Shown here: positions 1 to 38,535 of the stretch, one piece after another
How positions within the stretch are numbered: the first letter of the stretch is position 1
How the letters are laid out: every line of letters starts with the position of its first letter
DNA from: a virus
Lineage: Duplodnaviria > Caudoviricetes
IMG/VR virus record: IMGVR_UViG_3300022177_000069
Coordinates: 1 to 44,149 of that record
DNA length: 44,149 nt
Strand: one strand, 5' to 3'
The notes under the pieces: generated by a model
What the model was told of the DNA's origin: nothing
Databases searched by the model: none
Seen by the model: the letters and a program-made list of their open reading frames with translations, nothing else
Translations under genes and position numbers: made by a program

Positions 1-1197
1 ATGAGAACAAAAATTGCCACAGTTCCGCGCTTGAAGCAATCAGGCAATAAGGACTGGTACGTTTATTTTTCTGTCCTCGATCCGATGACAGAAAAAATGA
101 AACCAATGAAAATCTACAGAGGCTTTAGCAGCTGTCAGACCAAGCAAGCGAAAATTGCATGGGGTGAGAAACTTGTTGCTGAGCTTACGGAGAAACTAAA
201 AAACGGCTGGAATCCGCTGGATGATAAGGAGGTTTATATCTATTCCGATCAGACGGAGTACCTGACTCTCACTAAGAAGTTTAACAGACTACGAAGCTCG
301 GTTAAAAATGTCCGGTATCATGTCACGGAATACCTTAACAGCAGAAAAACAGAGTTGAAGCCCAAATCCTATTCAACCTATCAGAGTAAACTGAGAATCT
401 TTATTAAATGGTTGGAGGAAAATAAGTATGATGAGTATGATGTTTCTGCAATAACTAATAAACACATCCAGAAGTTCTTCCAGTTCCTTATCCAGGACAG
501 CAATTTAGACCGAAGAACCGTAGAAAAGTACTTCCAGATATTAAGAAGCTACTTTGAGTACTTAAGAAAGAAAAGTAAGGTTTTGAATAATCCGGTTATG
601 GATATCAAAATCCCTCCGAAGACTAAAGATATGGCTGCCAGGCCTATCCATGACAGAGACATGAAGCTGCTTCTTACCCATATCCGGGAAGCCAACCCTC
701 AATTGTATCTTGCCTGTATGTTTCAATTCTACCTTGCAATCAGGCCGGGACAGGAACTCCGGCTTATCAAGGTCAGGGATGTAGATGTCTACAATTATAA
801 GGTCGTTGTCGCGGATGAGACAGCCAAAACGAGTCGACGGGTGATTGATCTTCCTAAAGCCTTGGCTGACATAATTATAGATTTCCAGATTGACCGGTAC
901 AACCGGGATTATTATATTTTTGGGAAATTTGGCCTGCCAGGGCCTGATCCTCTGGGACATAACACCCTTCGAAATCGCTTCAATAAATTCCGTGACGCAC
1001 TAAATTTGCCAAAAATCTACAAGTTCTACAGCATGAAACATTCCGGAGGAGGAAAATTACTGGAAGCTGGATTGACTATTGAGGAGATCAGAAACCACTT
1101 TGGGCACAAGAGTATTGAAACTACGGATCATTACTTGCGGAGACACTTCGGAAATAGAAATGCCAGGATTATTAATAAGTTTCCAGCGCCATGGTGA
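1..1197 (+). CDS. Tyrosine recombinase / phage integrase
   Basis: SAM-like core-binding region followed by catalytic motifs AIRPGQE (R), TAK (K), FYSMKH, FGHKS and TTDHY (Y nucleophile). Confidence 0.92.
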   Translation: MRTKIATVPRLKQSGNKDWYVYFSVLDPMTEKMKPMKIYRGFSSCQTKQAKIAWGEKLVAELTEKLKNGWNPLDDKEVYIYSDQTEYLTLTKKFNRLRSSVKNVRYHVTEYLNSRKTELKPKSYSTYQSKLRIFIKWLEENKYDEYDVSAITNKHIQKFFQFLIQDSNLDRRTVEKYFQILRSYFEYLRKKSKVLNNPVMDIKIPPKTKDMAARPIHDRDMKLLLTHIREANPQLYLACMFQFYLAIRPGQELRLIKVRDVDVYNYKVVVADETAKTSRRVIDLPKALADIIIDFQIDRYNRDYYIFGKFGLPGPDPLGHNTLRNRFNKFRDALNLPKIYKFYSMKHSGGGKLLEAGLTIEEIRNHFGHKSIETTDHYLRRHFGNRNARIINKFPAPW

Positions 1198-3054: not shown

Positions 3055-4100
3055 TAATAGCTTCCTCCGTCGATTGTGGCATTCTTGATCAAATTATTGA
3101 CAGACACCTTGCCGATCACAGCCCCAGAGGCATCATAAACAGGAACCATGTCAGTCGAAGCATCGATGTCTGCTGCAATGGTGTTCATGCCGTTGATATC
3201 TATCTCAAGCATTACCTTATCTCCTGAAACAGTCTTTTTTAGCCCCCTTGCAGCAGTTACATCGATTTTATCATCCAGATAACCGGCTGCTCCACCGGCA
3301 TTTACTTTGACCTGATATGTGTCACTTACAATACCTGAGAGAAAATTTGTCCGGGTAATTTTGCGTTGCCTTGCCTGGCCGGATTCACTGACATCAATAA
3401 TGATGACAAAGTCATCTGCAGCGATTGCGGTTCCGGTTGCCAGTTCTTCCATGGCAATATCAATTGTGTTACCTGTGATTGATATTCCCAGACCGGCCAC
3501 CATGTTTTTAATTCCTGTAAACGGCTGGATGTCGATATTGGTGGTACCAATAGTAATCGTATCAGAAAATACCCTCCAGATAGTGTCAGCCTGGGTGGTA
3601 CCTTGTGCCACCCCAAACGTAGCACCCATAAGTTCTGAATTGCTATTGGCGTCAGCTGACCTTTGCCAGGCTGAAGCACCGGCAATGTAAATACCGTTCT
3701 GGGTTGCATTGGTTTGCGCAACAACTCCAACACGTGCGCCAGCCGGAACCGAAACACCATCAATGGTCTGTAAACCTGATAAGGTGATATTCCCGGTGGT
3801 AACTACAAGAACATCCGATTTCCAATTCAATCCGGACAACAAATTATCGACTTCTCCCTTTGAATAAACATCAAGGTTGGTCCGTGCTACTGCCTTGTCC
3901 GGTAAATCATTCAGGTTTTGAGCCTTCAGCAGGTAATCACCAAGCTGCGAAGCCTGGCACAAAAGAATTTTAGTGGTTGCCGTCCAGCATATATACAGGT
4001 TCCCCGTATCTACAGCCATTATAAACTCCCCGGGGTTCAGCCCCGTGGTTGGGATGTTGGCATCCACAGCATACCTTTTAATCTTGATCGTATTAGCCAT
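3054..4100 (-). CDS. Phage fibre protein
   Basis: N-terminal IKIKR...L.PGE motif, QNLNDLPDKAVARTNL fibre repeat, TTGNITLSGLQTIDGV...QTNATQNGIY domain common in phage fibres, C-terminal IDGGSY. Confidence 0.75.
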   Translation of the reverse strand: MANTIKIKRYAVDANIPTTGLNPGEFIMAVDTGNLYICWTATTKILLCQASQLGDYLLKAQNLNDLPDKAVARTNLDVYSKGEVDNLLSGLNWKSDVLVVTTGNITLSGLQTIDGVSVPAGARVGVVAQTNATQNGIYIAGASAWQRSADANSNSELMGATFGVAQGTTQADTIWRVFSDTITIGTTNIDIQPFTGIKNMVAGLGISITGNTIDIAMEELATGTAIAADDFVIIIDVSESGQARQRKITRTNFLSGIVSDTYQVKVNAGGAAGYLDDKIDVTAARGLKKTVSGDKVMLEIDINGMNTIAADIDASTDMVPVYDASGAVIGKVSVNNLIKNATIDGGSY

Positions 4101-6801: not shown

Positions 6802-8610
6802 CTAACACTCAATCAGATCCACATCTACAAGGCTGAGATGCATGTGAGACAATGAATAATTGAGTTTCTGAATGTAAAATAACCGGCCTTTCAAAAACAC
6901 TTTATCCCGGATGTCCAGTTTCTTAAGCTCGAGGGGTGAAAGCAGAAAAGACCCTTTCACTTTCATTTTATCCTTTTCAGTCCAGGCTTTCATCATTCCG
7001 TGATATTTCTCAATAAGGCCATCAGGCCCCTCCGGATGGAGAGAAGTATTAAGGTGTTTCACCCCAAAATGATCAGTATGGTGCGACATGATGAGCGGAT
7101 ATTCACTGCCATCATTCTCAAGTGTGCCCGCCATTCCAGCCCAGAACATAATACTAGGTGGTTCTGAAAGCCCCTTTTTCTCAATTACAGGAACCCACCA
7201 GTGTTTCTTCTGGATGATATCTGCATAGGGCGCTTTATCCTGCCACCAATACTGATCAATGGCCATATCTGCCGGCCGGATATCTGAAATGACTTCTGTC
7301 TTGTCCCGGCTGCCATCTGGTTCGCGGGAAGCAAGCGGGCTGTGCCTGATATCAAAAGTTAACCATGGAAGCGAATCCAGGCCCCGGAGTTTCCGGGTGA
7401 TGTTATACTGGCCACCGGTGGATCCATCTGCGTATACAGTCCCGGATTCGCTCCCAGATGAGACTGCAGTGTCAAAAATTTCTTTAACAGAGCTATAGGT
7501 TCTAAGCATATCTTCTTCCGACTTATCAACTCCATCATACCGGAAGATATAGTCCCTCGCTTCTTCATAAGTTATAATCGGATCCCCCGCAAGTTTTCCA
7601 TCCCAGTTTAGCCTTACCTGCCGGTTCATAACATCATTTGAAAACTCCATGCGGTATTTCACGCCAGGATATGCCGTAATGCAAAAGATTTTCATGAGGT
7701 TTTTCAGCAATTCCCTGAAGGGATAAGATTGCAGAAATGACTTCATTTCCCAGGATATGGGGATTAAACCATTCGAAGCGTTATAAGAGTCCACCAGCGG
7801 GAACATTACATCCTGGCGATGCTCCTCCATTGGAGGGATCCAGTACCAGCTATACAAGTTATCAAAACTGAAGTACTTATGGTTCATGCTGATAAGAACC
7901 AGTTTAGCCAGGTCTCCGGAGGCAAAAGGGTTTGACGCCAGGTATGTCCCGAACGCCTGCTCTATAATTTTATGCACAAAAGGGAAAGGCAGGATAGGCG
8001 TGTGGGCTTTCTCCTGATCTGTGATAAAGAAGTTCTTTGTTACCGGGTTAAAGTAATTGATGTATTGTTTAACACTGTTTACCATCCCTCCGGCACTTTC
8101 AGATCCTGACCAGGAAACCTCCCTCAGCCTGACCGGTGCAATAACATAATCTGAGCCCTGGTAGGCCATGCCCCTCATGGATAAGACATATTCTTCCAAT
8201 TCCTGGGACTGGTAGTTCAGGTCTTCAGCATGATACTGGAAAGAACCATACTGCCTTGACCCCAGATCGATTTTATTCAGGTTTACGGCTATTTGCTCAG
8301 GCTCCCGGCTTCCTTTAAATTGTAGTTTAATGGTTGGATCTGTTTCAATAAGAAGTATTTCCCCCCGGGCCAATACTAACCCGCTGAAACGGATCTCGGC
8401 CGGCAAGCGCTTGTGTATTGAAGCTGAAGAAATGCGCACAGGGAAACCCAGCACTTTCAGGTTCCAGGGCGTTGGAGGAACATCAAACGAAAGTGAATAG
8501 GGGGCAGGAACCCTATCATCCATGAACAAAGGGTTTTCCTCAATAAAATTAACTACAATGTCATTTGACAAGTTAAGGGCTAAGCCTTGCCCCACAATTA
8601 CTTCAAGCAT
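6802..8610 (-). CDS. Tail protein (hub/tip) downstream of tape measure
   Basis: 602 aa immediately after the TMP; N-terminal ENPLF...YSLSFDVP.TP.N motif typical of Bacteroidota phage tail proteins. Confidence 0.6.
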   Translation of the reverse strand: MLEVIVGQGLALNLSNDIVVNFIEENPLFMDDRVPAPYSLSFDVPPTPWNLKVLGFPVRISSASIHKRLPAEIRFSGLVLARGEILLIETDPTIKLQFKGSREPEQIAVNLNKIDLGSRQYGSFQYHAEDLNYQSQELEEYVLSMRGMAYQGSDYVIAPVRLREVSWSGSESAGGMVNSVKQYINYFNPVTKNFFITDQEKAHTPILPFPFVHKIIEQAFGTYLASNPFASGDLAKLVLISMNHKYFSFDNLYSWYWIPPMEEHRQDVMFPLVDSYNASNGLIPISWEMKSFLQSYPFRELLKNLMKIFCITAYPGVKYRMEFSNDVMNRQVRLNWDGKLAGDPIITYEEARDYIFRYDGVDKSEEDMLRTYSSVKEIFDTAVSSGSESGTVYADGSTGGQYNITRKLRGLDSLPWLTFDIRHSPLASREPDGSRDKTEVISDIRPADMAIDQYWWQDKAPYADIIQKKHWWVPVIEKKGLSEPPSIMFWAGMAGTLENDGSEYPLIMSHHTDHFGVKHLNTSLHPEGPDGLIEKYHGMMKAWTEKDKMKVKGSFLLSPLELKKLDIRDKVFLKGRLFYIQKLNYSLSHMHLSLVDVDLIEC

Positions 8611-8612
8611 AG

Positions 8613-11600
8613 TTACAGGTTTGCATTATTTTTCAACCGGGTATCTTCTTCCATTGTCTCGTAAAACCCTCCGCGCCCGTGAAGCGCTACTGTTGATTTG
8701 ATTGGCTTTTCCAACCGGGTTTTGAGCGCTGCCATTACAATGGTATTCTGACGAATAATCTCGAGTAATGCCGGATCCTGGGCAGGAGCAGATGAAGGCT
8801 GATTGCTTGACGGATTATTGCCTGACATATCACTGATATAACCTCCCTGCTGGCGGCCGGGATAGGTCCTTGTGCTCTCAAGGATTGCCGGAAGGTTAAT
8901 GGTTGAAAGGTTTCCATTCAGCCTGCCCATTTCAAGGATATCCAATATTGGCCTAATGGTGGGGTTATTTACCCCTGCATCAGAAACAATGTACTCAGAA
9001 GACCCCTGCTTTTCTCCGGCTATTATAGTCGGAGTACTTACATAGCCCCGTTTTCGGGGATCATGTTTTGCCCTGAAGCGCTTGCCATCCTGAGCACGTT
9101 GCACATCCAGGTAACCACCGGTTTCGCGCCCTGGTAACTCCGGAAGCGGAGTTTTTATGATAGCGCCAACCTGAAGCCCACCCATTGCTCCTACGATACT
9201 GGCTAGAATCAGACCCAACGGTGGGGCTACCGTCAGAGCTGATGTAATTGCAGCAGCCGTATTAACAATTGCATTCATAAGTGCGACATTGCGCGAGCGC
9301 ACAGCCTGCCGATACTCAAATTCTGCTTTCTTCTTATCCAAGTCTTCATCCAGTTTTGAAACCTGGTAGTTGTATGCCTCCTGAGAAATTAAGCTATTAT
9401 CAAGATAATGCTGAAGTTGATCCTTTTGCTTGTCTACCGACCGCTCAAATTCTACTAGTCTTGATTCCTCACCGGCTGAAACATTATCATAATAAGCTTG
9501 CCAGACCATCCCCAGGGCCTTCACACCCATGATCAGCTCATCGATGCCGCCTTTCCCGTCTTTCAGGTTCTGAAACAACAACTCCCAATCCTCCGGAGTA
9601 AAGCCCAGGATATCGGTACTCATGCCCCCGATCCTGCCCGCTTTCGGATCTGTTTCCTCTGAACCTGCAGTAAGGCCGGAGAGCAGTTTCTTCACTTCGT
9701 TGATCCGCTCAACAAGCACCTGTCTTTCTTCTTCAGACAATAATGTGTCACTCAGGTTCAGGCCTTCCCAGTCTCCGGATCCCATAACCTGCTGAAGGGT
9801 CTCAAGCAGCTTCTGCAGATGTTCCCGGGTAAACTGCTCCTCCTCTATGGCCTGTTGCCTGCGGAGAATTCGTTTTGCCTTATCCAGGCTCCGGATCTTC
9901 TGAAGCTCTTCGTTCGACATGAACTCAGAAAGGATCTCTTTTGCCTGGGCGAGCGATGTAATTGAATTGAGTTCATCAGCATTGCGGAGCCGCATTGTGG
10001 CCATGATTGTTTCATACTCCTGCTGGATCCGCTCAATCTCATCCTTCATGGCATCCGCATCCAGTTTGGCCAGCTTTTGATGATGCAGTTTTTCCAGGCT
10101 TTCAAGGGCTGCCAGTTCCAGGGCGGTCATTTCTTCACGCGATTTTCCAAAAAGCTTCAGTTCAATTAACCGGTCTTCATGCTCCTGCTTTTCCCTGTCA
10201 ATTGCAGATTGCCCTTTCAGAGAGGCCTCAGTCAACTCTCCGGAGCGTTTTTCTTCCTCCTTGCGTATCTCAATAATTTTATCTGCAATGGTTTGCTGCA
10301 GGGCCAGCAGATCCTCTCCGGATTCTTTGCCTGAGAGTATCCTGTTTTTCAGGTACTCAATCTCCAGGGCCCTCAGCCGTTGCTGTAGTTCCTGTTCTGT
10401 GGCTATTACTCCTTCATTATAATCCTGTTTGAGTTTTAATGACTCCCTCAGGAAATTAATGTCAGAGTTAAGAGACCATTTTTTGTTTTTATTGTCCGGA
10501 GCTGGAGGCTCCGGAGGCCGGTTGTCCGGATCCAGGTTATCACCATCATTCAAACCAGCAGGAGATCCTTCCAGTGATTTCTCATACGCCTGAACTGCCT
10601 TTTCAACTTCACCCCGCATGGTTTCAAGGGCTTTAACGGTTTGCAGGTGCTCCTTCTCAGCCCGGTCACGCCGGTTTTTCGCCCGGTTAACAATGCCTGA
10701 ACGTGCGGCCTGGGCAGCAACACCGGCCTCCCCTCCCCCGACCACTTCATTCAAGGGGTTTTGGGCCATTGCTGACTGATACTCATTCTCTGCTTTCTGC
10801 AATTCCCGCTGGGCAGCAGATTCTTTTTTTATCAGTTCAATCATTTCTTCCTCGGCTGCCTGCTTCCGGAATTTCATCTCAAGCATTACCAGGTAATCTT
10901 TGATGGCTTGAGTATTATGATTGATTAGGCGCCCTTCCTCGGTTAACTCAGCATTATAGCCAGGCATGATACGTTTGAGTTCTTCAATGGCCTGCTTTCT
11001 TAAATTGTTGGATACATTTTCGCTTTCAATACGCTCCACCAGGAATTTGATTTTTGATGCTTGATCATCCAAGAATTCATTTGTCTTCCGGGATACATTA
11101 TTGAGCGCCTGTTTCTCTGCAGTAGCTTCTCGGGTGCGCTTTGCATAGGTAAAAAGCGCACCGGCAGCCAGGGTAACAATCCCAACCAGGAAACCAACGG
11201 GGTTCATCTTGGTAGCGGCTGAAAATACCCGCATTGCCTGGGCTGCCCCTTTCAGATTCCCGGTGAGCAACATGGTTGCAGCGGCATAAAGCTGAGTAGC
11301 TGCAATGGCTGCATTCTCAATAGTAATTTTGACTTTTGTAGCGATAATCTGCCTCAATGTAGCCTGGGTTTGCCGGTTCTGCCATAGGGTAGCCAGTTTT
11401 GTGGCAATCGTATAGGCCGCAATCGTAGCCGCTAGCTTTAGAATAGCGCCTGAATGTTTGATAAAGAACTCCGTCATCACAATTCCAGCTTTTACGAAGT
11501 AACTGAATCCAGAAGTAGAAACTGTGAGAGCCGGCATAAGTTTCTCTCCCAACTCTATTGCCAGATTATTTAAGGCCTTCCTTTTCTTTTCAAGGATCGC

Positions 11601-14392: not shown

Positions 14393-16456
14393 TCAAATAT
14401 TGATTTCAACAATTTTACTCGTGTCAATTCCAAGAATGTCAACGACCTTCACCATTATCTTGTATTTCCCAGGTTGTTTATATTCGTAAGAAGTGCTTGT
14501 AAATTCAAGGGACGGGCTTTTCTTGGTCCGGAAACTTTGCCACTCGTTTTCAAACAGATAATTGCCTGTCCATTTTTCTTCAACTTCGCCTTTTTCGTTG
14601 TGGACTTTTATTATTTCTTTTTTGTCTTCGTAGTTGAAATCAATTGCCCAGTAATCAATCCAATCGTACCAGTTTTCGGTAAGTACAGTTCTTGTAATAA
14701 TACCGTTTTTGTCTTTAACCACTTTTACTATTTGTCCGTCCTCAATTACTACTTTGCTTCCAGCTCGCATTGATTGTTGAATATCTTCAATATCGTCTTG
14801 TGTGTAATGAGTTACAAAGTCGGTTAATTCAACTGTTACTTTTTTGCCATTGATTATTTCCTTTGTGTTTAAATAAGCAACATCGTAAAATTTGGCTTGC
14901 CCTTTTTCTACGGCACGTTTATCGAACACATCTTTGGGAATGTATTTTAATGTGATTGCAACACCTTTCTCTTTGAGTTCCTGAATAAATTGTGGTGTTA
15001 AACCCATTTCAAATTCAAAACCTAATACATCGACTTGAGTGTAAAGTTTTTGGCGACACTCTTCAAAAATATCCAACAAACGACTCTGTGTTACGGGAAC
15101 ATCTAAAGGACCAACATTGATAAATCTGCCTGCTTTACTTCCGTGCAGGGTTTTATGTCCTTCAATCCGTTTGGCTTTGTATGCTTCCAGAATTAAATCT
15201 ACATACAAATCTTCTTTGGCTTTTAGTTTTCCGTTGGTGAGGTCGTCCATAAAAAACTGGCGTTCGTACTTGCCAAGATTTAGTATTTCAAAAGCACGGA
15301 AATCTTTACCGCTTTCCTGCAATTCCCTTTGTATGCCAATCATTCGCTTACGTGTGGTGTGAACAGAAAACCTGCCCAAATCGGTAGTTATCCATTTTCT
15401 GCCCAATTTTTCGGCAACTGCTGCAGTTGTACCACTACCACAGAAAAAATCAGCAATTAAATCGCCTTCGTTGCTACTGGCTTTAATGATTCGTTCTAAT
15501 AGGGCTTCAGGTTTTTGAGTAGGATAGCCAAGTCTTTCATTACCAACTGGATTAATCATAGAAATTTCCCACATATCAGGCATTGGGACTCCTTTTGAAA
15601 CTTCATCAGTTAAAATAGAACGTCTAACACCATCTTCTCCAATTACACTGACCCATGCTTTACCATCACCAGAAGATTTATCTGATTTAGGAATGTAAAG
15701 CTGGTTAAAAATATGATTTCCTTTTGATTTAGAATAAAGGAAAATAGTGTCCCAATTTTTCGCAAATGCTTTACCAGCAATATTCCACCTTCGATAATAC
15801 CAAGCAACTTGATTGATAAAATTATCAACTCCAAAAATATCATCAAGTAAGAACTTTATGTAAGCATTAACTCTTCCATCAATATGCACATAGATACTTC
15901 CATCTTCCGATAATAAACTGTGCATTAATTTTAGGCGTTCGTACATCATTGTCAAGTAGGAAGAAATCCCCTTCCCCCATGTATCACGATAAGCAATTTC
16001 TTCAATAATGCTTTGTTTCTTTTCGGCTTTTTCTCCACCAATTTCGATTTCAAAACCAAAGTCGGCCCCAACGGCAAAAGGTGGGTCAATGTATATGAGT
16101 TTTAGTCCGCCTTCTTTTTCAATTTCTTCACGTATTGGTCCGTTTGCCAAAGAAGAAAGGATGAGTTTGTTATCACCCCAAATGAGTTTGTTTGTCCAGC
16201 CTTTTAATTGCCGTCCACGCATATCGAACATTTCAAACATATCGCCAGCTTGTTTGGCTTCTTTGCGAGGTTCGTCTATGTGTTCAATACTATGGAAAGG
16301 CAACGCAATGTTTGTTACATCTTCTTTTCTGCCATTCCAAAACAGGAAAACATCTTCTTCGTCTGAGAAAAGTTTATAAATATCTTCTTTGGGCAGTTTT
16401 TGTCCTGCTTTTATGATTTCAATAATTCGGTTTTTATCGTTGTCGTTCAAATTCAT
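14393..16456 (-). CDS. mod: Type III-like R-M DNA methyltransferase (Mod), N6A/N4C beta class, with long C-terminal extension
   Basis: LIYIDPPF (motif IV) precedes YPTQKP and DFFCGSGTT (motif I); translationally coupled to the Res gene. Confidence 0.88.
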   Translation of the reverse strand: MNLNDNDKNRIIEIIKAGQKLPKEDIYKLFSDEEDVFLFWNGRKEDVTNIALPFHSIEHIDEPRKEAKQAGDMFEMFDMRGRQLKGWTNKLIWGDNKLILSSLANGPIREEIEKEGGLKLIYIDPPFAVGADFGFEIEIGGEKAEKKQSIIEEIAYRDTWGKGISSYLTMMYERLKLMHSLLSEDGSIYVHIDGRVNAYIKFLLDDIFGVDNFINQVAWYYRRWNIAGKAFAKNWDTIFLYSKSKGNHIFNQLYIPKSDKSSGDGKAWVSVIGEDGVRRSILTDEVSKGVPMPDMWEISMINPVGNERLGYPTQKPEALLERIIKASSNEGDLIADFFCGSGTTAAVAEKLGRKWITTDLGRFSVHTTRKRMIGIQRELQESGKDFRAFEILNLGKYERQFFMDDLTNGKLKAKEDLYVDLILEAYKAKRIEGHKTLHGSKAGRFINVGPLDVPVTQSRLLDIFEECRQKLYTQVDVLGFEFEMGLTPQFIQELKEKGVAITLKYIPKDVFDKRAVEKGQAKFYDVAYLNTKEIINGKKVTVELTDFVTHYTQDDIEDIQQSMRAGSKVVIEDGQIVKVVKDKNGIITRTVLTENWYDWIDYWAIDFNYEDKKEIIKVHNEKGEVEEKWTGNYLFENEWQSFRTKKSPSLEFTSTSYEYKQPGKYKIMVKVVDILGIDTSKIVEINI

Positions 16457-19131
16457 TATGATTCTTTATTTTCGGTTACGGTAAAAATTTTAACTACTTC
16501 GGAAAACGATTTAAAATCGTTTTTAATATCGTCCCATTTTTCCTGATTAATGTAAACAGGCGAATAGGTGTAATCCTTTTGTGCTGTGTTTATATCTTTA
16601 CACCACACAAAGAGCCGTTGAATTTTGCGAATATCGTCTAAATCTTCACGCCCTTTAGTTTCTACAATATAAAAGGTTTTGTCGCTGGTTTTTACAAAAA
16701 AGTCGGGGTAATATTCTCGTATGTTTCCGTCTTGTGCCTGATATTCAATTTTAAAATTGATACCACCTTCGCCCATTGTATTTTTTGCATACGAAACTAC
16801 ATCGTCAAAACGACTTTCGAGAAATGAAGCAAATTCTAATTCAAAAGGATTGTCGCCAATAATTTTATTGAACACCGATTTTTTAGGCACAATAAAAGGT
16901 TGGTTTTCTGCAATTTTAGGTTTCGATAATTTCAGGGAAATGTAGTTTTTAACTTCGGCTGTTCCTTTGTCAGTTACAGTTAATTCGTCAATTGCTTTTT
17001 TGAATGTTGATTTTAGTATTTCTTTTGGCTGAATTTCAGAGAGATTACGCAATGTTTGAGCATCGCTTAGTTCTACTTCTTTTGTAAAGAGTTTGTATTT
17101 TATAAAACTTTCAACCTTTGGATAAAGAATATCAAAACCACTTACCAAACGGCTGTCTTTTAATATTGTAGCTGTGAAAAAGCCAATTACATTACGATAA
17201 TCGGGAACGGTATCTTTAAATATAGTTTTGTGTGAAAAATCACCTTCAATATCGTTGAAAATGATTTCTTTCAATTCATCATTGCTGAATTTTTTAAGTG
17301 GTGATTTTTCGTTGGTAAACTTGCTAACGTCTATTAATTCAAGATTTTTAAACTCTCTATAAATACGTGGACTCATTTGTGGAATTGGAATATCTAATTT
17401 GTCCAAATCTTTATTCGGGTTTTCCTTGTCAACCTCCACAATAACAGGCGATTTCCCTTTTGTGCCTTTACCCATTGGGCTGTATTGAAATTCAACCCCT
17501 TCGGTTTTTAAACTTTCAACAAACTCCAAAAACGCTGGAGTACCAACAACAACCAAATTTTCTGGCGTATCTAACGAAAACATTTTTCGCAAGCCTCTGC
17601 CTATGGTTTGTTCGGGTAATATTTTAGAATCGGCACCAAACGGACGTAAACCAACAACAGTTGAAACATTTCTTACATCCCAGCCTTCACGAAGCATTAA
17701 AACTGAAACAACCGCTTTGTATGGCGAATCATCTTTATCAATGTCATCAGCCGCTTTTCTTAATTTCTCTAACTCTTCTTTTGCCTTCTTGGAAGTTGCT
17801 GTTTCGCTTATTTCACCCGAATTATTAGTATGAATAGTAAGTACTGAATTTTTCATTTTAGGATAAGTGCTTTCCAAAAAAGCGGCTGCCTGGTCGGCTT
17901 CCTTAGTGCTCATTGTCATTATGAAAAGAATGGGTATTTTTTGGCTTTTCAATTCTTCGTATTGTTGCTCCCATTCCAAGTATCCCAAATGAATGTAATC
18001 ACGGTAACGTTCAACAAAATCGGAAGAATCTTTCTCCTGAATTTTTTGTCGTGATGCTTCATCAGGTAATACAGGCGACTTAACAACATTTTGTTTTATA
18101 GCTTCGACCAAAGGATAATCGCAAATAGTCTGAACAAAAATAGCTCCGTTGTTATGTTTAGGTGTTGCTGAATAATCGGCCTGTAAACTTAAACCATTGC
18201 CGTTTTTAAGCTTTAGTTTATTGCTAATATCCTCAATGCTTTTAAACCAAGCCAATGAACTATCGTGAATGTGGTGGGCTTCATCGTTCAAGACAATCAA
18301 GTCTTTTATTTTATCGGTACGCAAAACCTTACCTAAGTCTAACCCTTTTGAGATGTCGGCATCGGGTTTTGGTTTCACGCCTAAGAAAGTATCTTCAAAA
18401 CTTTGTTCGGGTTCTTCGTTCAAAAATACTCTGTGTATGTTGGTTAGAAAAATATTTCCCGATTCGGTTATTGGTTTAAGCTCGTCCTGAATGTGTAAAG
18501 TTAGTTGAAAATCGTTTTTCCAGTCTTTGTCGGCATATCCATTTTCTGGGATAAAAGGCTCGTCAAAAAACATTTTTAAGCCGTCAAAGTCTTTACGTAA
18601 ACGATTCAAAACAATGATATTCGGCGCAATTACCAAGAAATTTTTTGAGAGAGAACTGTCAGTTTCATAGAGGTTATGAAAGTAGCTCCAAACCAAAGTC
18701 AAACCCATTACTTTTGTTTTACCTGCACCAGTTGCCATCTTCACAACATATCGTGTCCAACTTTCATCAAACATTCCAGTACTCACACGCCCAGAAGAAT
18801 CAAAACGCATCAGTTCGTATTTGTCCTTTGCTTTTGCAACTTCGTACAAATAGACTATTGATTCTATGGCTTCACGCTGCGAAAAGAAAAAACAAAATTT
18901 AGATTGTCCGATTAAGTGTTCTTGATTAAACCAAAAGTTCATCAATAGTTTAGAGGTCTCAGAAGCACCTGAATAATTATCTTCTCTCCATTTTGCGACT
19001 GCAAGCCGGATTTTATATACTAAAGGAGGGAGAAGTTTTTCATAAGCATTCTGGAACAACTCCATCTGAATCTGTGTCGGAGCCCAACGCTCATTTGGTG
19101 CTAATATTTCAAAGGGACTAGAGAATTTCAT
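16456..19131 (-). CDS. res: Type III-like restriction endonuclease (Res): SF2 helicase plus PD-(D/E)xK nuclease
   Basis: MATGAGKT Walker A, DEAHH, SATP, LREGWDV, EQTIGRGLR, and C-terminal YYPDF...VETKG. Confidence 0.9.
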   Translation of the reverse strand: MKFSSPFEILAPNERWAPTQIQMELFQNAYEKLLPPLVYKIRLAVAKWREDNYSGASETSKLLMNFWFNQEHLIGQSKFCFFFSQREAIESIVYLYEVAKAKDKYELMRFDSSGRVSTGMFDESWTRYVVKMATGAGKTKVMGLTLVWSYFHNLYETDSSLSKNFLVIAPNIIVLNRLRKDFDGLKMFFDEPFIPENGYADKDWKNDFQLTLHIQDELKPITESGNIFLTNIHRVFLNEEPEQSFEDTFLGVKPKPDADISKGLDLGKVLRTDKIKDLIVLNDEAHHIHDSSLAWFKSIEDISNKLKLKNGNGLSLQADYSATPKHNNGAIFVQTICDYPLVEAIKQNVVKSPVLPDEASRQKIQEKDSSDFVERYRDYIHLGYLEWEQQYEELKSQKIPILFIMTMSTKEADQAAAFLESTYPKMKNSVLTIHTNNSGEISETATSKKAKEELEKLRKAADDIDKDDSPYKAVVSVLMLREGWDVRNVSTVVGLRPFGADSKILPEQTIGRGLRKMFSLDTPENLVVVGTPAFLEFVESLKTEGVEFQYSPMGKGTKGKSPVIVEVDKENPNKDLDKLDIPIPQMSPRIYREFKNLELIDVSKFTNEKSPLKKFSNDELKEIIFNDIEGDFSHKTIFKDTVPDYRNVIGFFTATILKDSRLVSGFDILYPKVESFIKYKLFTKEVELSDAQTLRNLSEIQPKEILKSTFKKAIDELTVTDKGTAEVKNYISLKLSKPKIAENQPFIVPKKSVFNKIIGDNPFELEFASFLESRFDDVVSYAKNTMGEGGINFKIEYQAQDGNIREYYPDFFVKTSDKTFYIVETKGREDLDDIRKIQRLFVWCKDINTAQKDYTYSPVYINQEKWDDIKNDFKSFSEVVKIFTVTENKES

Positions 19132-23887: not shown

Positions 23888-24349
23888 CTAGATCATTCCA
23901 TCATCTGCAAAACTATAGTAGTTCCCTTCGGGGGTCAGAATTATATGATCCAGTAAATTAATATCAAGGAACCCAGCGCCCTCTTTGATCTTCTTGGTTA
24001 GCTTTATATCTGCCTCGCTTGGCCGGGTGTTCCCGCTCGGGTGGTTGTGGCATAGTATAATACTGGCGGCATGCGACAACAAAGCGGACTGCAGTATCAT
24101 TTTCGGGTCGGCCACAGTTCCGGCCTGCCCTCCTTCGCTTACGTTCATTATTCCGATAACACGGTTAGCCCGGTTTAACAGCATAACTTTAAAGCTTTCC
24201 CGGTAGGCAATTTGCGACATATCCCAAAAGTAAAAAAAGGTTTCAAAGCTTTGTTTGCTGCTTGTCATTATTGGCCTGTTCTTAGTATCCGGTTTCGAGG
24301 GTACATAAGAGAGTTTAACTTCTGCTATTTGATTAAAAAGAGTTTGCAT
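23888..24349 (-). CDS. RadC-like JAB/MPN domain protein (stand-alone)
   Basis: E...LLNRAN, HNHPSG..PS.AD and LLDHII motifs. Confidence 0.9.
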   Translation of the reverse strand: MQTLFNQIAEVKLSYVPSKPDTKNRPIMTSSKQSFETFFYFWDMSQIAYRESFKVMLLNRANRVIGIMNVSEGGQAGTVADPKMILQSALLSHAASIILCHNHPSGNTRPSEADIKLTKKIKEGAGFLDINLLDHIILTPEGNYYSFADDGMI

Positions 24350-24368
24350 AGTTCACAAGTTTTAAGAG

Positions 24369-24866
24369 TTAAAAAATATCATCCGTTACAGTTTCCGCGT
24401 GGGCGTGCTCAGTTTTCATTACCTGACCTTCGGGTTTATGATCCTTTTGTTTTTCCTCAGCTTTTCTTACCTGCTTTTCAGAAAAAAGGTAACAAAGCGG
24501 AAAAAAAAGGTTTTCCATGTCCTCAGTAGATATTCCCTTTTCCTTTTCCTCATCCCCTTCACGGGTTCCCACCGGCTGCCCCCACACGATAAAGGCTTTT
24601 TCACCTTTTTTTACCGTTGCTCCTTCTGCTTTCCATTGCATGAAGGTTTTAAACTCCTTTGCCCCGTCGGTCTGATATATGTAATTAAGCAACATAAAAT
24701 TAATGGTTCTGCTTGCCCAATAAAAAGCCTTCCCAGATTGGCCGGCTTCTTCGGCTTCTTTAATCAGCCTTGCCCGCAAGGCTTCGGCATCTCTGCTTAA
24801 GTTGCTTAAAATAATACGCTTTTGCCTCGTGGGGTTCTCTTCTTTTGTATCTTTGTTGCTGTTCAT
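24369..24866 (-). CDS. ArdC-like N-terminal ssDNA-binding domain protein
   Basis: FKTFMQWKAEGATVKKGEKA motif, ending in YLFSEKQV; no C-terminal HExxH protease domain. Confidence 0.7.
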   Translation of the reverse strand: MNSNKDTKEENPTRQKRIILSNLSRDAEALRARLIKEAEEAGQSGKAFYWASRTINFMLLNYIYQTDGAKEFKTFMQWKAEGATVKKGEKAFIVWGQPVGTREGDEEKEKGISTEDMENLFFPLCYLFSEKQVRKAEEKQKDHKPEGQVMKTEHAHAETVTDDIF

Positions 24867-34147: not shown

Positions 34148-34416
34148 TTGTAATTCACCCTTAAATATGGTTCTATATATTTGATATTAAATTCATTACA
34201 AATTACAATCCGATTTGTAAGGCATTTCTATTGCTCTGATTATCAAGCCTTACAAAATTACAGAAGTTTGTAAGGCTCAAATTTTAAGCTTCTTTAGCAG
34301 GTAAGTAAAATTACAAACCCGAAAAAATTACAAATTGCCGGAATTTTTGTAATAAATTTGTAATACTATAACTTTGTGTTTTCCAATTAGATTACCATTA
34401 TTATTACAAATTACAG
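34148..34416. repeat. AT-rich TTACAA/TTGTAA iteron cluster; candidate replication origin
   Basis: 11 exact hexamers (34148, 34196, 34203, 34215, 34250, 34268, 34311, 34328, 34347, 34358, 34404) plus TTACAG at 34258 and 34411. Confidence 0.65.
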
Positions 34417-34632
34417 TAATAAAATACTTTTGGGGGTTGGGGGGTGGTTTTGCAAATATGCAAATGGATTGAATTGGAAAACAGGTAAATATATGGTGTT
34501 CGCTGCGCTCACTAGTGTGCGGCAGAAGCCGCGGCATAACGTGAATTAATATATTGGTTGCCGGATGGCCAAAAATAATCCCGGTTGATTGAAATATGGG
34601 CATGGATTGGCTAGTGAGTAATTATACAGGCG

Positions 34633-34665
34633 ATTGTAGAATGGTTGCAGGTATAATTATATTTG
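34633..34665 (+). promoter_or_regulatory. Pc-like promoter reading into the cassette array
   Basis: ATTG-N21-TATATTTG; perfect TAnnTTTG at 34658-34665. Confidence 0.6.
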
Positions 34666-34744
34666 ATTACAAGCGATTACAAGCAATTGCAAACGCTTAA
34701 ACCTTAAAAGTTTATGCGTTTATTTACAAGTTAGCGGTAATTAT
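34665..34744 (+). other. attI-like site
   Basis: Direct repeats GATTACAAGC x2 (34665-34684) upstream of TTTACAAG|TTAGCGGTAATTAT (G at 34730), which is complementary to the end of cassette 1. Confidence 0.5.
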
Positions 34745-34770
34745 AACAGACACGATAGAAACAATTAAAT

Positions 34771-35619
34771 ATGAGAGAAAAACCATTTGTATTTATAGGT
34801 TCATCAGCAGAAGGACTTGAAGCAGCGAAAGGAATTCAAGCCAATCTTGACTACACTTGTGAATGTCAAATATGGTCACAAGGATTATTCGGACTATCAG
34901 GAGGAACACTTGAAACATTGGTAAAATCGTTAGACAACTTTGACTTTGCTATTCTTGTTCTAACTGAAGACGACATTACTATAAGCAGAGACCAAGAACA
35001 AGCATCGCCAAGGGACAATGTAATTTTTGAATTAGGGTTGTTTATAGGTGGTCTTGGCATTGAAAGAACTTTTATGGTTGTAGACAGACAAGCAAAATTG
35101 AAATTGCCTTCTGACTTAGGAGGAATTACTCCTGCGACTTTTGAGCCACCGAGAAAAGGAACAATTCAATCAGCACTTGGTAGTTCTTGTTTGGCGATTG
35201 AACAAGCAATAAAAAAACTTGGTGCAAGAAATGAAGTAGGTGTAACTGCACACTGGTGGACAAAGTGTGCGGAAGACGGAGTTACAGATACACCTAATTA
35301 TTATATGACCGTGTTTAATAGGACAAATAAGGATTTGCCCTGGTTAAACGTTCACGTTTTCCCATCAAATACTTTTAAACTAACTCCGATAACACCGCAA
35401 CGGGACAGAATTATGGCTGGTCAATACGCTATGTATGAATTCAAAATGTATGACGACACAGACACCGACCAATTAACGAAATGGGCTGAAAGGTTTTCAA
35501 ATGAGAAAGAGGAAGAACTATCAATTCGCATTTTTAAGGAGAACACAGCTGACGAACCTGTTTTGATTAGTTACGAACTTGGGACAAAACTTCATAAACG
35601 AATTTTGAAATACAAATGA
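34771..35619 (+). CDS. Cassette 1: TIR-like nucleotide-binding domain (Cap12/Pycsar-type) with unknown C-terminal domain
   Basis: VFIGSS.E, FDFAIL...DD, PRDNVIFELGLF.G.LG and LPSDLGG motifs. Confidence 0.85.
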   Translation: MREKPFVFIGSSAEGLEAAKGIQANLDYTCECQIWSQGLFGLSGGTLETLVKSLDNFDFAILVLTEDDITISRDQEQASPRDNVIFELGLFIGGLGIERTFMVVDRQAKLKLPSDLGGITPATFEPPRKGTIQSALGSSCLAIEQAIKKLGARNEVGVTAHWWTKCAEDGVTDTPNYYMTVFNRTNKDLPWLNVHVFPSNTFKLTPITPQRDRIMAGQYAMYEFKMYDDTDTDQLTKWAERFSNEKEEELSIRIFKENTADEPVLISYELGTKLHKRILKYK

Positions 35620-35621
35620 GA

Positions 35622-35768
35622 ATAACTACCGCTAACAGCCGTTTTGCAAAAGCGGGGATTTCGTGCTTCTAAGACAGTGAAGTGCTAAATTAAAGCTTTG
35701 TGCATCTAATGAAGTTTAGTGCTGAAAATCCCCGCCTTCGCAAAGCGGCAAAACGTTGGCGGCAAGCG
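35622..35768 (+). other. attC-like recombination site (imperfect palindrome, about 132 bp core to core)
   Basis: CGCTAAC (35630-35636) ... GTTGGCG (35755-35761) enclosing 24-nt arms GCCGTTTTGCAAAAGCGGGGATTT / AAATCCCCGCCTTCGCAAAGCGGC (21/24 complementary). Confidence 0.75.
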
Positions 35769-35828
35769 TAAGTGCGACTACATCAATATTTCAATATCGA
35801 AAAAAATCTATACCTTAACAGCAAAAAA

Positions 35829-38159
35829 ATGGCAAAAGCATTTCTTTCACACAGCAGCAAAGACAAGGGACTAGTTGAGAAAATAGCTACTCAACTGGGC
35901 AAAAACAATTGTCACTATGACAAATTCACTTTTGAGGCAGGTAATCTAACTTTAGACGAGATATTTAAAGGTTTAGAAGATACAGATGTTTTCGTCTTAT
36001 TTATTTCTCAACCAGCACTTGAGTCTGAATGGATTGAGAAAGAAATAACTCATGCTAGAGTACTTTCGACAGACAAGCGAATAGATAGAATTTTTCCAAT
36101 AATAATTGATAAGTCAATCCATCATTCGGACAAACGAATACCCGAATGGATAAGAAAACCTTATAATCTAAGAGTTTTTGACAATGAAGTAATTATTTTA
36201 AAAAAAATAAAACAGTTACTTCGGGAAAGCAACTTTAAGCAGTTTTCTCATCTAAGAGATATAAATGACTTATTTGTTGGGAGAAATGATATTATGCAGG
36301 AATTCGAAAGGCGAATCATAAATATTGAAAATACAAAGCCGACCTGCATCATTGCTTCAAGTTTTTTCGAAGGCATGGGAAGAAGAACTTTTTTAAGAAA
36401 TGGACTTATAAAAACCAGAGTAATTGACAAATGGTATGAACCTGTACCTGTTTCAATTGGATCAAAGGAAAGTATTGAAGACTTCCTATATAAGCTCAAT
36501 TTTATTGAAATAATCCCTGAAGTATTTAAAAAGAATTTTGCAACTGATGACCTTGAAACAAAAATAGAGCTTGGAAGAAAATTCTTAAAGAAATATTCTG
36601 AAACAAAAGAATTACTTTTTATTATAGATGAAGGTAGTATTGTACTTCCCAATCATACCTTGGTTGGTTGGTTTCGTGAAATAATATCTACACCAGATCT
36701 TTTAAACCAAGTTTCAATTTGTTTAATATCTAAATTTAAACCTTATGGACCCCATATTAAGAAATTGGGGAATGTTCTCAATTTTCAAATTGACGAACTT
36801 TCCCAAGAGGACACTCAGACATTGTTTATCCAGTATCTTAATATTATCAAACAACAACTACGTCCGGAAGATATTAAATTCTTCTTTCAATATTTACATG
36901 GTATTCCAGGCCAAATAATTTATGCTGCAAATTTAATAGAAAGCATGGGGCTTGTGGACTCAAAAGCCTTTGTGAAAGACATAGAGGAATTTGATGAGTT
37001 AAGAGCCCTGTCAATCTTAGAATTTTTAAAAGACGACCCTTTATGTACACAAATGCTGATTGCTTTATCAAAATTTGAAATAATAAGTCACGATCTGGTG
37101 TTTAAGATATTTGGAGAGACAGATGAAGTTTATAAAGCAATCCAGAAGTTGTTTGATTTAACATTGTTCTTCTCAGTTAGCTCAACCCATGACTATCTAA
37201 AATTAAACAGTTCAATTTCTGATTATATAAATCGTTCTAGATTAGAACTTAACCAATCTATTAATAACCGTATAAAGGAAATTGCAAGAGAAGCAATTCA
37301 GAAGCCACTTGAGTTGACCGAAACTTCTGACTATTCTGAATTTCTTTTCACTTTGGAAAATATGATTAAAGAAAATATTGCGATTCCAACAAAGTACTTA
37401 ATTCCATCATTCATTTTAAAATCCATTATTAAAGAATATAATGACCGGCAGTATAAAAAAGTAATTCAACTTGCAACAAAATTACTTGAAAATGAAAATA
37501 AATTTGATTTCCAAATTATTCGAGAGACAAGAAATTGGCTGTGTCTAGCTTATTGCAGAACTCAAAATGAAAAGTTTTTTGAATTGATTAATTTTTTCAA
37601 TAATCAAGATAACGAATCGCAAATTGACTTTCATTTTCTATTTGGCTTCTATTACAGAAATGGAGATAAAATGGATGAAGCGGAAGATCATTTTTTAGAA
37701 GTTTTAAAACTTGATGAAAATCATTCAAGAACAAAACGCGAACTTGTAAATGTTTATCTGAGGAAAGGTGAGTACATGAAAGCACTCAATTGGTCAAGAG
37801 ATAATTATAAGAAGTTTAAAACTAATATTCTCCATATACAAGCATATTTCACTTGTCTAATAAAGAAAGCTGATAAAAGTGAATTTGACTTAGATACAAT
37901 CAAAGAACTTCTACAGAATGCTTCAAAAAGTTTAGATAAAAAAGCTAATAATGTAATGAGGGAAATGCAGGCAGAGTATGACTTTTACATTAAAAACAAT
38001 GCAAGTAGTGCAATTACTACCTTGAATGAATCTTTGAGAATGAATCAACATAACTACTTCGCATTTAGAGCACTTTTTGAAATATACAAAAAGAAACACA
38101 TGGCCTTTGAATTGGGCGAACTTGTATCAAAGTATCCAGACCTATATGAGTTCGAATAA
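35829..38159 (+). CDS. Cassette 2: TIR + degenerate P-loop NTPase + TPR protein (776 aa from ATG 35829)
   Basis: AFLSHSSKDK...SEWIEKEI TIR; LFVGRN, EGMGRRTF, LFIIDE and GIPG STAND-like motifs; TPR-like C-terminus (GFYYR..D..DEA..HFL.VL.LD.NH). Confidence 0.8.
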   Translation: MAKAFLSHSSKDKGLVEKIATQLGKNNCHYDKFTFEAGNLTLDEIFKGLEDTDVFVLFISQPALESEWIEKEITHARVLSTDKRIDRIFPIIIDKSIHHSDKRIPEWIRKPYNLRVFDNEVIILKKIKQLLRESNFKQFSHLRDINDLFVGRNDIMQEFERRIINIENTKPTCIIASSFFEGMGRRTFLRNGLIKTRVIDKWYEPVPVSIGSKESIEDFLYKLNFIEIIPEVFKKNFATDDLETKIELGRKFLKKYSETKELLFIIDEGSIVLPNHTLVGWFREIISTPDLLNQVSICLISKFKPYGPHIKKLGNVLNFQIDELSQEDTQTLFIQYLNIIKQQLRPEDIKFFFQYLHGIPGQIIYAANLIESMGLVDSKAFVKDIEEFDELRALSILEFLKDDPLCTQMLIALSKFEIISHDLVFKIFGETDEVYKAIQKLFDLTLFFSVSSTHDYLKLNSSISDYINRSRLELNQSINNRIKEIAREAIQKPLELTETSDYSEFLFTLENMIKENIAIPTKYLIPSFILKSIIKEYNDRQYKKVIQLATKLLENENKFDFQIIRETRNWLCLAYCRTQNEKFFELINFFNNQDNESQIDFHFLFGFYYRNGDKMDEAEDHFLEVLKLDENHSRTKRELVNVYLRKGEYMKALNWSRDNYKKFKTNILHIQAYFTCLIKKADKSEFDLDTIKELLQNASKSLDKKANNVMREMQAEYDFYIKNNASSAITTLNESLRMNQHNYFAFRALFEIYKKKHMAFELGELVSKYPDLYEFE

Positions 38160-38175
38160 TAATCGCCAGCCGCCA

Positions 38176-38260
38176 ATCGAGTAGACGGCCGGTGAGCCAT
38201 AAGCCCACCGGTGCGCCTCTCACACCACCGTACGTACGGGTCACGTATACGGCGGTTCAA
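38176..38260 (-). mobile_element. Group IIC intron 3' remnant (domains V-VI only)
   Basis: Minus strand GAACCGCCGTATACGTGACCCGTACGTACGGTGGTGTGAGAGG (DV, CGC triad), then DVI stem ending GTCT-A-CTCGAT with bulged A; no RT ORF. Confidence 0.88.
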
Positions 38261-38337
38261 ACACCATCATCGAATTTGGTGCATCTGCAATAATTACAAG
38301 TTCCGTAACTCATAATTCTTATTCCGCTTGGAGATTA

Positions 38338-38535
38338 TTAATCATGAATAGTTCTAATATCCTGCAGCAATTCTTTAAACCGCCTGTCCCGTGCCGCCTT
38401 AGTTTCAAATTTCTCCAAAGTTCTCCATTCATAGTTACCGTTCTCTTTTACTTTGATTCTCGGGGATGGCTGATCATCAGTCCTGATGATCCGGAACCCG
38501 GCAGCCATTACTTTCATTTGTGAGTTTGTGTCCAT
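38338..38535 (-). CDS. Small hypothetical phage protein (start at ATG 38535)
   Basis: 65 aa MDTNSQ..., last gene of the replication operon. Confidence 0.6.
   Translation of the reverse strand: MDTNSQMKVMAAGFRIIRTDDQPSPRIKVKENGNYEWRTLEKFETKAARDRRFKELLQDIRTIHD

Follow-up and report, generated by a model that had tools for sequence, protein, structure and literature searches.

How does a temperate phage come to hold a row of gene cassettes separated by an integron-like hairpin when it encodes no integron integrase? This question is raised by IMG/VR virus record IMGVR_UViG_3300022177_000069 (Duplodnaviria; Caudoviricetes), whose full 44,149 nucleotides are called the window here, and in particular by positions 34,633 to 38,337. 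The window is a temperate phage genome, with genes for an integrase, a tape measure protein, a head protease and an endolysin, and a prophage 100% identical to it is embedded in a 281-kb host contig (L083). On the basis of sequence comparison, we consider it highly probable that an attI-like docking site of this prophage gains and loses whole hairpin-bounded cassettes precisely at 34730|34731, likely through a host tyrosine recombinase supplied in trans, and that the host machinery is an integron-like system of Bacteroidota that differs from IntI integrons.

Two plus-strand open reading frames (ORFs; 34771–35619 and 35772/35829–38159) lie inside a minus-strand phage operon. The bodies of the two cassettes have GC contents of 37% and 31%, against 44% in the phage backbone, which agrees with an earlier note on this DNA that had described AT-rich units antiparallel to the operon and whose sequences and coordinates for the array were correct. 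Cassette 1 (34731–35755, plus strand) consists of a CAP12/Pycsar-type TIR gene (34771–35619, 282 aa) and its own hairpin site, and cassette 2 (35756–38175, plus strand) of a TIR-NLR gene (35829–38159, 776 aa) that is followed by a split R″ box (38171–38175). As that note had also said, no integron integrase accompanies the array: profile scans of the window proteins revealed no IntI, and the sole tyrosine recombinase was the prophage integrase (1–1197, plus strand).

Between the cassettes lies a chimeric, attC-like hairpin of 132 bp (35630–35761, plus strand), whose left end fits cassette 1 and whose right end fits cassette 2. Its bottom strand folded more stably than all 200 shuffled sequences (z = −4.0 for folding energy), compared with z = −2.5 for the top strand, and the structure contains an asymmetric loop of 1 nt × 5 nt followed by a stem of about 20 bp. 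Each cassette had been proposed to pair its left end with its own right end. This was borne out for cassette 1, whose ends are complementary to each other at 14/15 positions versus 9/15 for the opposite hairpin half; 13/15 was reached in none of 300 mononucleotide shuffles. For cassette 2 a match of 10/12 supports the pairing, but the last A that had been counted is part of a group II intron, at its 3′ end. The cores deviate from the attC consensus, as had been observed, and are degenerate beyond AAC/GTT. A plain nucleotide hidden Markov model profile of 42 sites gave a single match in the window at E < 0.01; the sites here are non-canonical, one being an intact hairpin and the other split. 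Rfam contained no family for the hairpin and returned only a chance miRNA match (E 0.15), and the exact 28-nt hairpin arm had 0 matches in viral contigs. Members of the hairpin family were also seen in GenBank Flavobacterium phages beside a DNA methyltransferase gene (H1–H6) and on eight Bacteroidota plasmids, and a 53%-identical recombinase on a Chryseobacterium plasmid (plasmids H7–H14 and H18).

The boundary at 34730|34731 was defined by sister phages. Three close relatives were present among the 80 loci returned for the gene to the left of the slot, two further sisters came from pattern scans and one from the assembled contigs of run X5. Sisters L001, L082, L089 and X5 share the site through 34730 plus the following TT and then diverge, giving five different first cassettes together with the window; divergence of related prophages exactly at G|TT is what had been foreseen. 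The left flanks of L001, L082 and L089 are 97.5%, 97.5% and 92.9% identical to that of the window. Of these sisters, L001 and L082 show right ends, and each fits the left end of the same cassette (13/16 and 10/14 in L001, 12/14 in L082); none is visible in L089 and X5.

Two of these sisters appear to carry nested arrays. L082 sits in a Bacteroidales metagenome-assembled genome (MAG), G001, and its left flank is 100.0% identical to that of L001 across 4,620 bp. In L001, an AbiJ cassette directly follows the docking site. Contig C57 of G001 reads, in order, the remainder of a hairpin, a 276-aa cassette, a hairpin, the AbiJ cassette, a 300-aa cassette and a broken end, and, starting at the AbiJ GTT, it agrees with L001 over 2,179 bp with 0 mismatches. 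Because the left flanks are identical and C57 continues into the L001 AbiJ cassette without a mismatch, the arrays of L001 and G001 would be nested and set apart, at the site-proximal end, by a minimum of two whole cassettes, with breakpoints that share only GTT, provided that contig C32 is rightly joined to C57. Both keep an identical, phage-specific broken right end. Past it, the right arms differ by a few percent; therefore, the L001 and G001 prophages are distinct phages. Comparison of near-identical phages shows different, and apparently nested, cassette arrays placed at one base. At the terminal site of L001 (reverse strand, 8490–8710) the sequence is cut right after the core and is followed by approximately 210 bp without a match among the compared loci, and G001 has the same end. 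A further observation is that the first cassette of L089 and a G001 cassette (C43 2240–2400, L098) share a leader of approximately 130 bp from the crossover and carry unrelated genes (a RecQ-like helicase and a likely type I methylase subunit), which hints at how cassettes are built.

Both window cassettes were also found outside the phage. In run X9, cassette 1 starts from exactly 34730 behind a non-phage upstream sequence ending in C, and in run X3, cassette 2 runs from 35754 into the intron, without phage backbone. RNA runs contained only 5–15% of the sequence words and were left out of this comparison. The expectation that these TIR genes have the same ends elsewhere was thus met at the start boundary for both cassettes, but not by diverged homologues with flanks, of which there were 0 in 401 genomes by protein, none in viral contigs and 0 in 401 genomes by DNA (2 candidates scored per genome). 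The TIR genes had three distant plasmid matches at 25–30%.

Could the locus instead be an ordinary prophage defence hotspot, in which pieces of host arrays, captured by illegitimate recombination once or a few times, pass between phages through homologous recombination of the flanking DNA and carry the site and hairpins along as passengers? The interval of approximately 34518–38338 does hold unrelated, non-cassette genes in two relatives without a docking site: L002 (92%) carries a DndB/DpdB-like pair and L003 (75%) a 514-aa protein without known function. Alleles X6 and X7 depart at 34518, left of the docking site, and are thus uninformative on it; X6 joins 34518 to 38372. At the right end, deletions have left ragged boundaries, which are not the same in the window and L001, and the P2/P4 hotspots carry TIR-NLR genes, with turnover by cos-linked and homologous recombination proposed in the accessible text of PMC9122126. 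However, passenger capture leaves unexplained why five different cargoes share one starting position behind a phage-specific site, as well as the nested arrays in L001 and G001 whose breakpoints share only GTT and which retain the same broken right end. This explanation is largely refuted for the left boundary, and as a whole we regard it as unlikely. The site-less alleles (L002, L003, X6 and X7) do imply that the docking module is one occupant of an older variable locus that is also an ordinary hotspot. An accessory segment (34519–34707, plus strand) accompanies the docking site in the window, L001, L082, L089 and X5 and is missing from L002 and L003; 79 bp of it (34629–34707) are deleted in L001 and L082. 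Among the loci compared, the segment 34519–34730 matched sister phages only, and inspection by eye revealed no captured recombinase 3′ end in it.

The docking site itself (34708–34732, plus strand) resembles sites that stand next to recombinase genes in chromosomes. It is identical in register at 18/25 positions to a chromosomal site of G001, and on an attI-like core profile it ranked second among 1,548 GTT sites and first among 415 AGTT sites of the window. Its score was +7.2, versus −14.7 or lower for hairpin right arms. The base preceding GTT is A at the phage site versus C in 68/68 hairpin right arms (37/42 in the non-redundant set). Together with the exact divergence of alleles, this supports the attI-like site that the earlier note had postulated. 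A related explanation keeps the same host recombinase but has it act on the decayed right arm of an attC-like hairpin, or on a secondary site. Positions 34600–34745 fold weakly on the bottom strand (z = −2.3, 5/200 shuffles), and a contig of run X3 shares 34717–34730 behind another upstream sequence, although this contig was not recovered on reassembly. Yet the A before GTT is that of recombinase-adjacent sites, not the C of hairpin arms, the profile scores and the 18/25 likeness to the G001 site point the same way, and L001 and L082, both of which have lost the foldable part, nevertheless vary by whole cassettes. This explanation is therefore very unlikely. A pattern search for the docking site in metagenomes gave 8 matches, namely the source contig, sister phage L089 and 6 others; the last were dismissed as chance, having no phage or cassette context. 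A higher-scoring window site (3975–4001, plus strand), antisense within a structural gene and with a GG|TT core, is probably also chance.

Hairpin homologues beside unrelated genes, and arrays with a linked tyrosine recombinase, had been named as things to look for in Bacteroidota, and both were found. Hairpin matches occurred in 57 of 151 Bacteroidia genomes, and five fetched regions contained 131 hairpin sites (64 in genome G121 and 41 in G101). Consecutive chromosomal cassettes matched their own left end at 6/7 or more bases in 102 of 119 cases and the neighbour's end in 8 of 119. The longest ORF per cassette was sense in 78 and antisense in 18. The finder for chromosomal sites fixed the length range and a purine after AAC, and a looser finder also gave mostly 123–127 nt spacing. 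In 42 non-redundant sites the stem register was constant (+4) at positions 2–21, which corresponds to a 1 × 5 loop without single extrahelical bases. Within the G121 array, some hairpins and cassettes are reversed and a second hairpin type of 87 bp occurs twice (C1 4397630, 4400125, 4338118 and 4384758), and three small recombinase-like ORFs (159–162 aa) lie antisense (4305600, 4338979 and 4373085).

A co-oriented tyrosine recombinase of 368–388 aa stands at the 5′ end of the arrays in G121, G101 and G138. Its relatives at E 1e-50 were present in 82 of 151 genomes and in 10 of 39 in the family of G001; the G001-type enzyme has 596 aa with a long N-terminal extension, the G121 type 368 aa. Of 25 loci with sufficient sequence, 10 had hairpins within 1.5 kb downstream of the recombinase and 0 had them upstream. 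A TATA-N4-AG|TT core was found within approximately 125 bp after the recombinase stop in 33/40 loci under a strict rule and 34/40 under a loose one, about two picks probably being wrong under each. A first hairpin was called in 10 loci, and in 5 of these the right end of the cassette itself pinned the crossover to this core. The tallies include one site (L165) and one genome from G089, on which no conclusion depends. By this comparison, the type of site carried by the phage also adjoins co-oriented recombinases that head chromosomal arrays. Two site types were noticed among loci L143–L182. The short type, seen in the G001 family with its 596-aa enzyme, lies 20–40 bp from the stop; the long type, at approximately 100 bp, includes both direct and inverted repeats of the core-flanking sequence. 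The recombinase lacks approximately 43 residues of the IntI insertion, residues 262–286 of the G121 enzyme spanning 175–242 of VchIntIA, and it scored 207–211 bits against a TIGR02249 cut-off of 265, with a split match. Since the enzyme lacks these residues and the hairpins have 1 × 5 loops, the system would be integron-like in its working but outside the IntI/attC class.

Another enzyme might perform the exchange, such as the prophage integrase, host XerC/D or a canonical IntI encoded elsewhere, or a group II intron might mobilise the cassettes. The phage does lack the array recombinase, and an intron 3′ end trails a cassette in both the window and L082. However, nothing in G001, an incomplete MAG, exceeded the TIGR02249 cut-off, and the prophage integrase is only 19% identical to the array enzyme and is not that enzyme. 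Moreover, the L001 arrays are intron-free at the same crossover, and the intron parasitises the R″ boxes of many unrelated cassettes. This alternative is thus highly improbable, more so than the two above, and the host array recombinase is the favoured enzyme.

The intron, which was absent from the earlier description of the array, is a dead 3′ stub (38176 to ~38277, minus strand) comprising domains V–VI and the final codons of a reverse-transcriptase frame. An RF00029 match at 38176–38257 (minus strand) scored 39 bits (E 3.7e-5), just below the gathering score of 40, and intron 3′ homology reaches ~38277, with a depth approximately 10- to 25-fold above the phage in source run X1, as for a multi-copy element. 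Its insertion point is A|AC within the R″ box, in antisense orientation, and cassette 2 is without a complete right site because the rest of the intron and the hairpin were deleted. Assignment to the group IIC-attC class rests on domains V/VI, the antisense orientation and the position in the R″ box of a cassette site, the reverse transcriptase being deleted here. Five copies ending at the same base were found in G001, and for 4/5 the matching left end of the cassette was located on the contig. L093 shows the intron 5′ junction followed by the remainder of the AAC core and the stem, L161 has the intron within the first hairpin after a recombinase, and L184 is a full-length relative, 83% identical at the 3′ end, with a YADD reverse transcriptase and inserted after a hairpin. 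No reverse transcriptase was detected in G001, where repeat collapse is likely. A short ORF spanning the junction of intron and phage was rejected as a chance fusion with the reverse-transcriptase tail. We infer that the dead stub locks the last cassette in the array.

The cargo is partly of defence type. The cassette 1 protein matched PF10137 (E 3e-31) and the PADLOC effector TIR model (E 5e-49); Cap12 models matched it below the cut-off and at the N-terminus only. A Pfam scan of 43 window proteins did not reveal the cyclase that stands beside the TIR effector in CBASS (cyclic oligonucleotide-based antiphage signalling) and Pycsar (pyrimidine cyclase system for antiphage resistance). The cassette 2 protein matched the PADLOC TIR-NLR model PDLC03015 (E 1.2e-126, residues 20–771) with weak TPR matches, and has the TIR, NTPase and TPR architecture of a TIR-NLR in a single protein. 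Its start at 35829 gives 776 aa, the length of many Bacteroidota homologues, and that at 35772 gives 795 aa. Defence-type domains were clear in 4 of 7 readable cassettes: CAP12-type TIR, TIR-NLR, AbiJ_NTD4/PDC-S32 and REase-ARP, the last being the 276-aa cassette of C57. A likely benefit of such cargo is to shield the lysogen from rival phages.

A promoter pointing into the array had been placed at 34658, and the TAnnTTTG motif used here is taken from that claim. The sequence TATATTTG is indeed present at 34658–34665 (plus strand), but it is intact in the window allele only, 1 of 5: two consensus positions are altered in L089 and X5, and the box is deleted in L001 and L082. Three more TAnnTTTG matches lie 300–380 nt upstream of the phage site in conserved backbone, and a degenerate promoter-like box at −23 (34707–34714) overlaps the docking site and is nearly intact in L089. 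A perfect TAnnTTTG stands at exactly −23 in 5/5 G001-type chromosomal sites of the host family, and within 130 nt of chromosomal cores the motif occurred in 16/33 cases versus 22/234 background windows. Scans of the window for sigma-70 promoters (18 vs 16.7) and terminators (2 vs 2.6) gave numbers at chance level.

In the mechanism that we propose, cassettes would travel as circles and the folded bottom strand of the hairpin would be the substrate of the recombinase. New cassettes would enter at the docking site and shift older ones downstream. The host recombinase, presumably acting in trans on the phage site, would do the chemistry in the prophage state or during phage replication. Deletions would trim the far end and lock the oldest cassette, here after an intron had invaded the last hairpin.

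Several observations weigh against this mechanism. The recombinase was found in G001, the host of a sister phage, not in the window's own host, and the join of C32 to C57 in the G001 array bridges a contig break located at a multi-copy intron. The nested pair is compatible with gain and loss of cassettes alike. Different cassettes at 34730|34731 were seen as anticipated, but an empty docking site, which had also been anticipated, was absent among the five alleles. The locus also carries non-cassette cargo where there is no docking site (L002, L003, X6 and X7). The phage core departs from the consensus TATA at one position, an unrelated window site (3999) outscores it, and the profile score is partly circular because the rule by which sites were picked includes part of the motif. 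As to cargo, cassette 1 is a TIR effector without a cyclase partner, and of the 7 cassettes 2 have no recognisable domain and 1 has helicase homology only (DpdF/PsyrT).

Elsewhere in the window, a type III restriction-modification pair (N6_N4_Mtase and ResIII; 14393–19131, minus strand; 33–37% GC) lies within the structural region as a second cargo slot. A RadC/JAB gene adjoins an ArdC-N gene at 23888–24866 (minus strand), both possibly anti-defence genes. Clustered short TTACAAA-type direct and inverted repeats at 34200–34420, immediately left of the slot and kept in all close relatives, are possibly an origin or packaging signal.

If these arrays are active, they constitute an overlooked gene-capture system of Bacteroidota and a store of defence genes yet to be mined. 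A single hairpin readily led to large integron-like arrays that have a recombinase and a site design of their own, despite the reported near-absence of integrons in Bacteroidetes. The minimal parts are defined: a 25-bp site, a 132-bp hairpin and one recombinase. The phage locus offers a candidate mechanism by which cargo changes in prophage defence hotspots. We lean slightly towards a broader view, in which the enzyme-free docking site of temperate Bacteroidota phages would tap a host cassette library: a second, IntI-independent integron lineage, found in about half of the sampled Bacteroidia genomes with arrays of 40–60 cassettes, would feed defence genes singly into the phage and so bring about site-specific turnover of a prophage defence hotspot.

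How does this system compare with known ones? Like integrons, it has a G|TT crossover, promoterless single-gene cassettes with self-matching ends and polarised change at the attI end. A G|TT crossover receiving first-position cassettes is seen here by comparison only (five alleles, nested arrays), and chimeric, hairpin-bounded cassettes with AAC...GTT cores are present in both the window and the chromosomal arrays. Lacking are an intI beside attI, the IntI-specific insertion (alpha-I2 region) and RYYYAAC/GTTRRRY cores with two extrahelical bases. The hairpins fall in the 57–141 bp class of integron sites given in the accessible portion of PMC3053210, and defence cargo is likewise carried by integrons according to the accessible text of bioRxiv 2024.07.02.601686 (see also 2024.07.02.601719). 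Unlike IntI, the Bacteroidota recombinase has an N-terminal extension, is co-oriented with its array and is approximately 43 residues shorter in the insertion, although co-oriented true IntIs exist, as reported in the portion of PMC4889954 available. In contrast to the IntI attC sites treated in the accessible part of PMC3053210, the Bacteroidota hairpins are of near-fixed length, with a 1 × 5 loop, and their first 21 stem positions are free of any 1-nt register shift. The IntegronFinder 2.0 survey lists for Bacteroidetes, in the accessible text of PMC9024848, lone integrases plus one complete integron. No description of the Bacteroidota recombinase and hairpin system was found in the literature searched, which included few subscription papers and left supplementary tables outside its scope.

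The group IIC-attC introns of Leon et al. (2010; PMC3001079, as far as its accessible text goes) are alike in lying antisense in the bottom strand of a cassette site, often in the last cassette; they differ in that the window has a stub of only ~100 bp and that the target is the Bacteroidota hairpin. The P2/P4 hotspots (Rousset et al., 2022; PMC9122126) likewise show TIR-NLR cargo and, flanked by conserved phage genes, a defence locus of variable content. There, however, the locus lies beside cos, the exchange mechanism is speculative and the accessible text makes no mention of integrons, whereas exchange here appears base-precise at a recombination site. A phage-borne attI with cassettes but no integrase has already been published for canonical integrons. 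In its accessible text, Qi et al. (2023; PMC9892861) report phage-borne cassette arrays without integrase, a CALIN (clustered attC sites with no accompanying integrase) possessing an attI of its own in Shewanella prophage M16-3, and attC sites of a Polaribacter phage recombined by IntI1. Those elements differ in having canonical IntI-type sites, and M16-3, thought cryptic, also has a complete integron. A set of sister phages whose cassettes at a single site are swapped or nested, as at the present locus, does not appear in that text. The novelty of the window locus is its enzyme-free, putative phage docking site with five alleles and an apparently nested pair.

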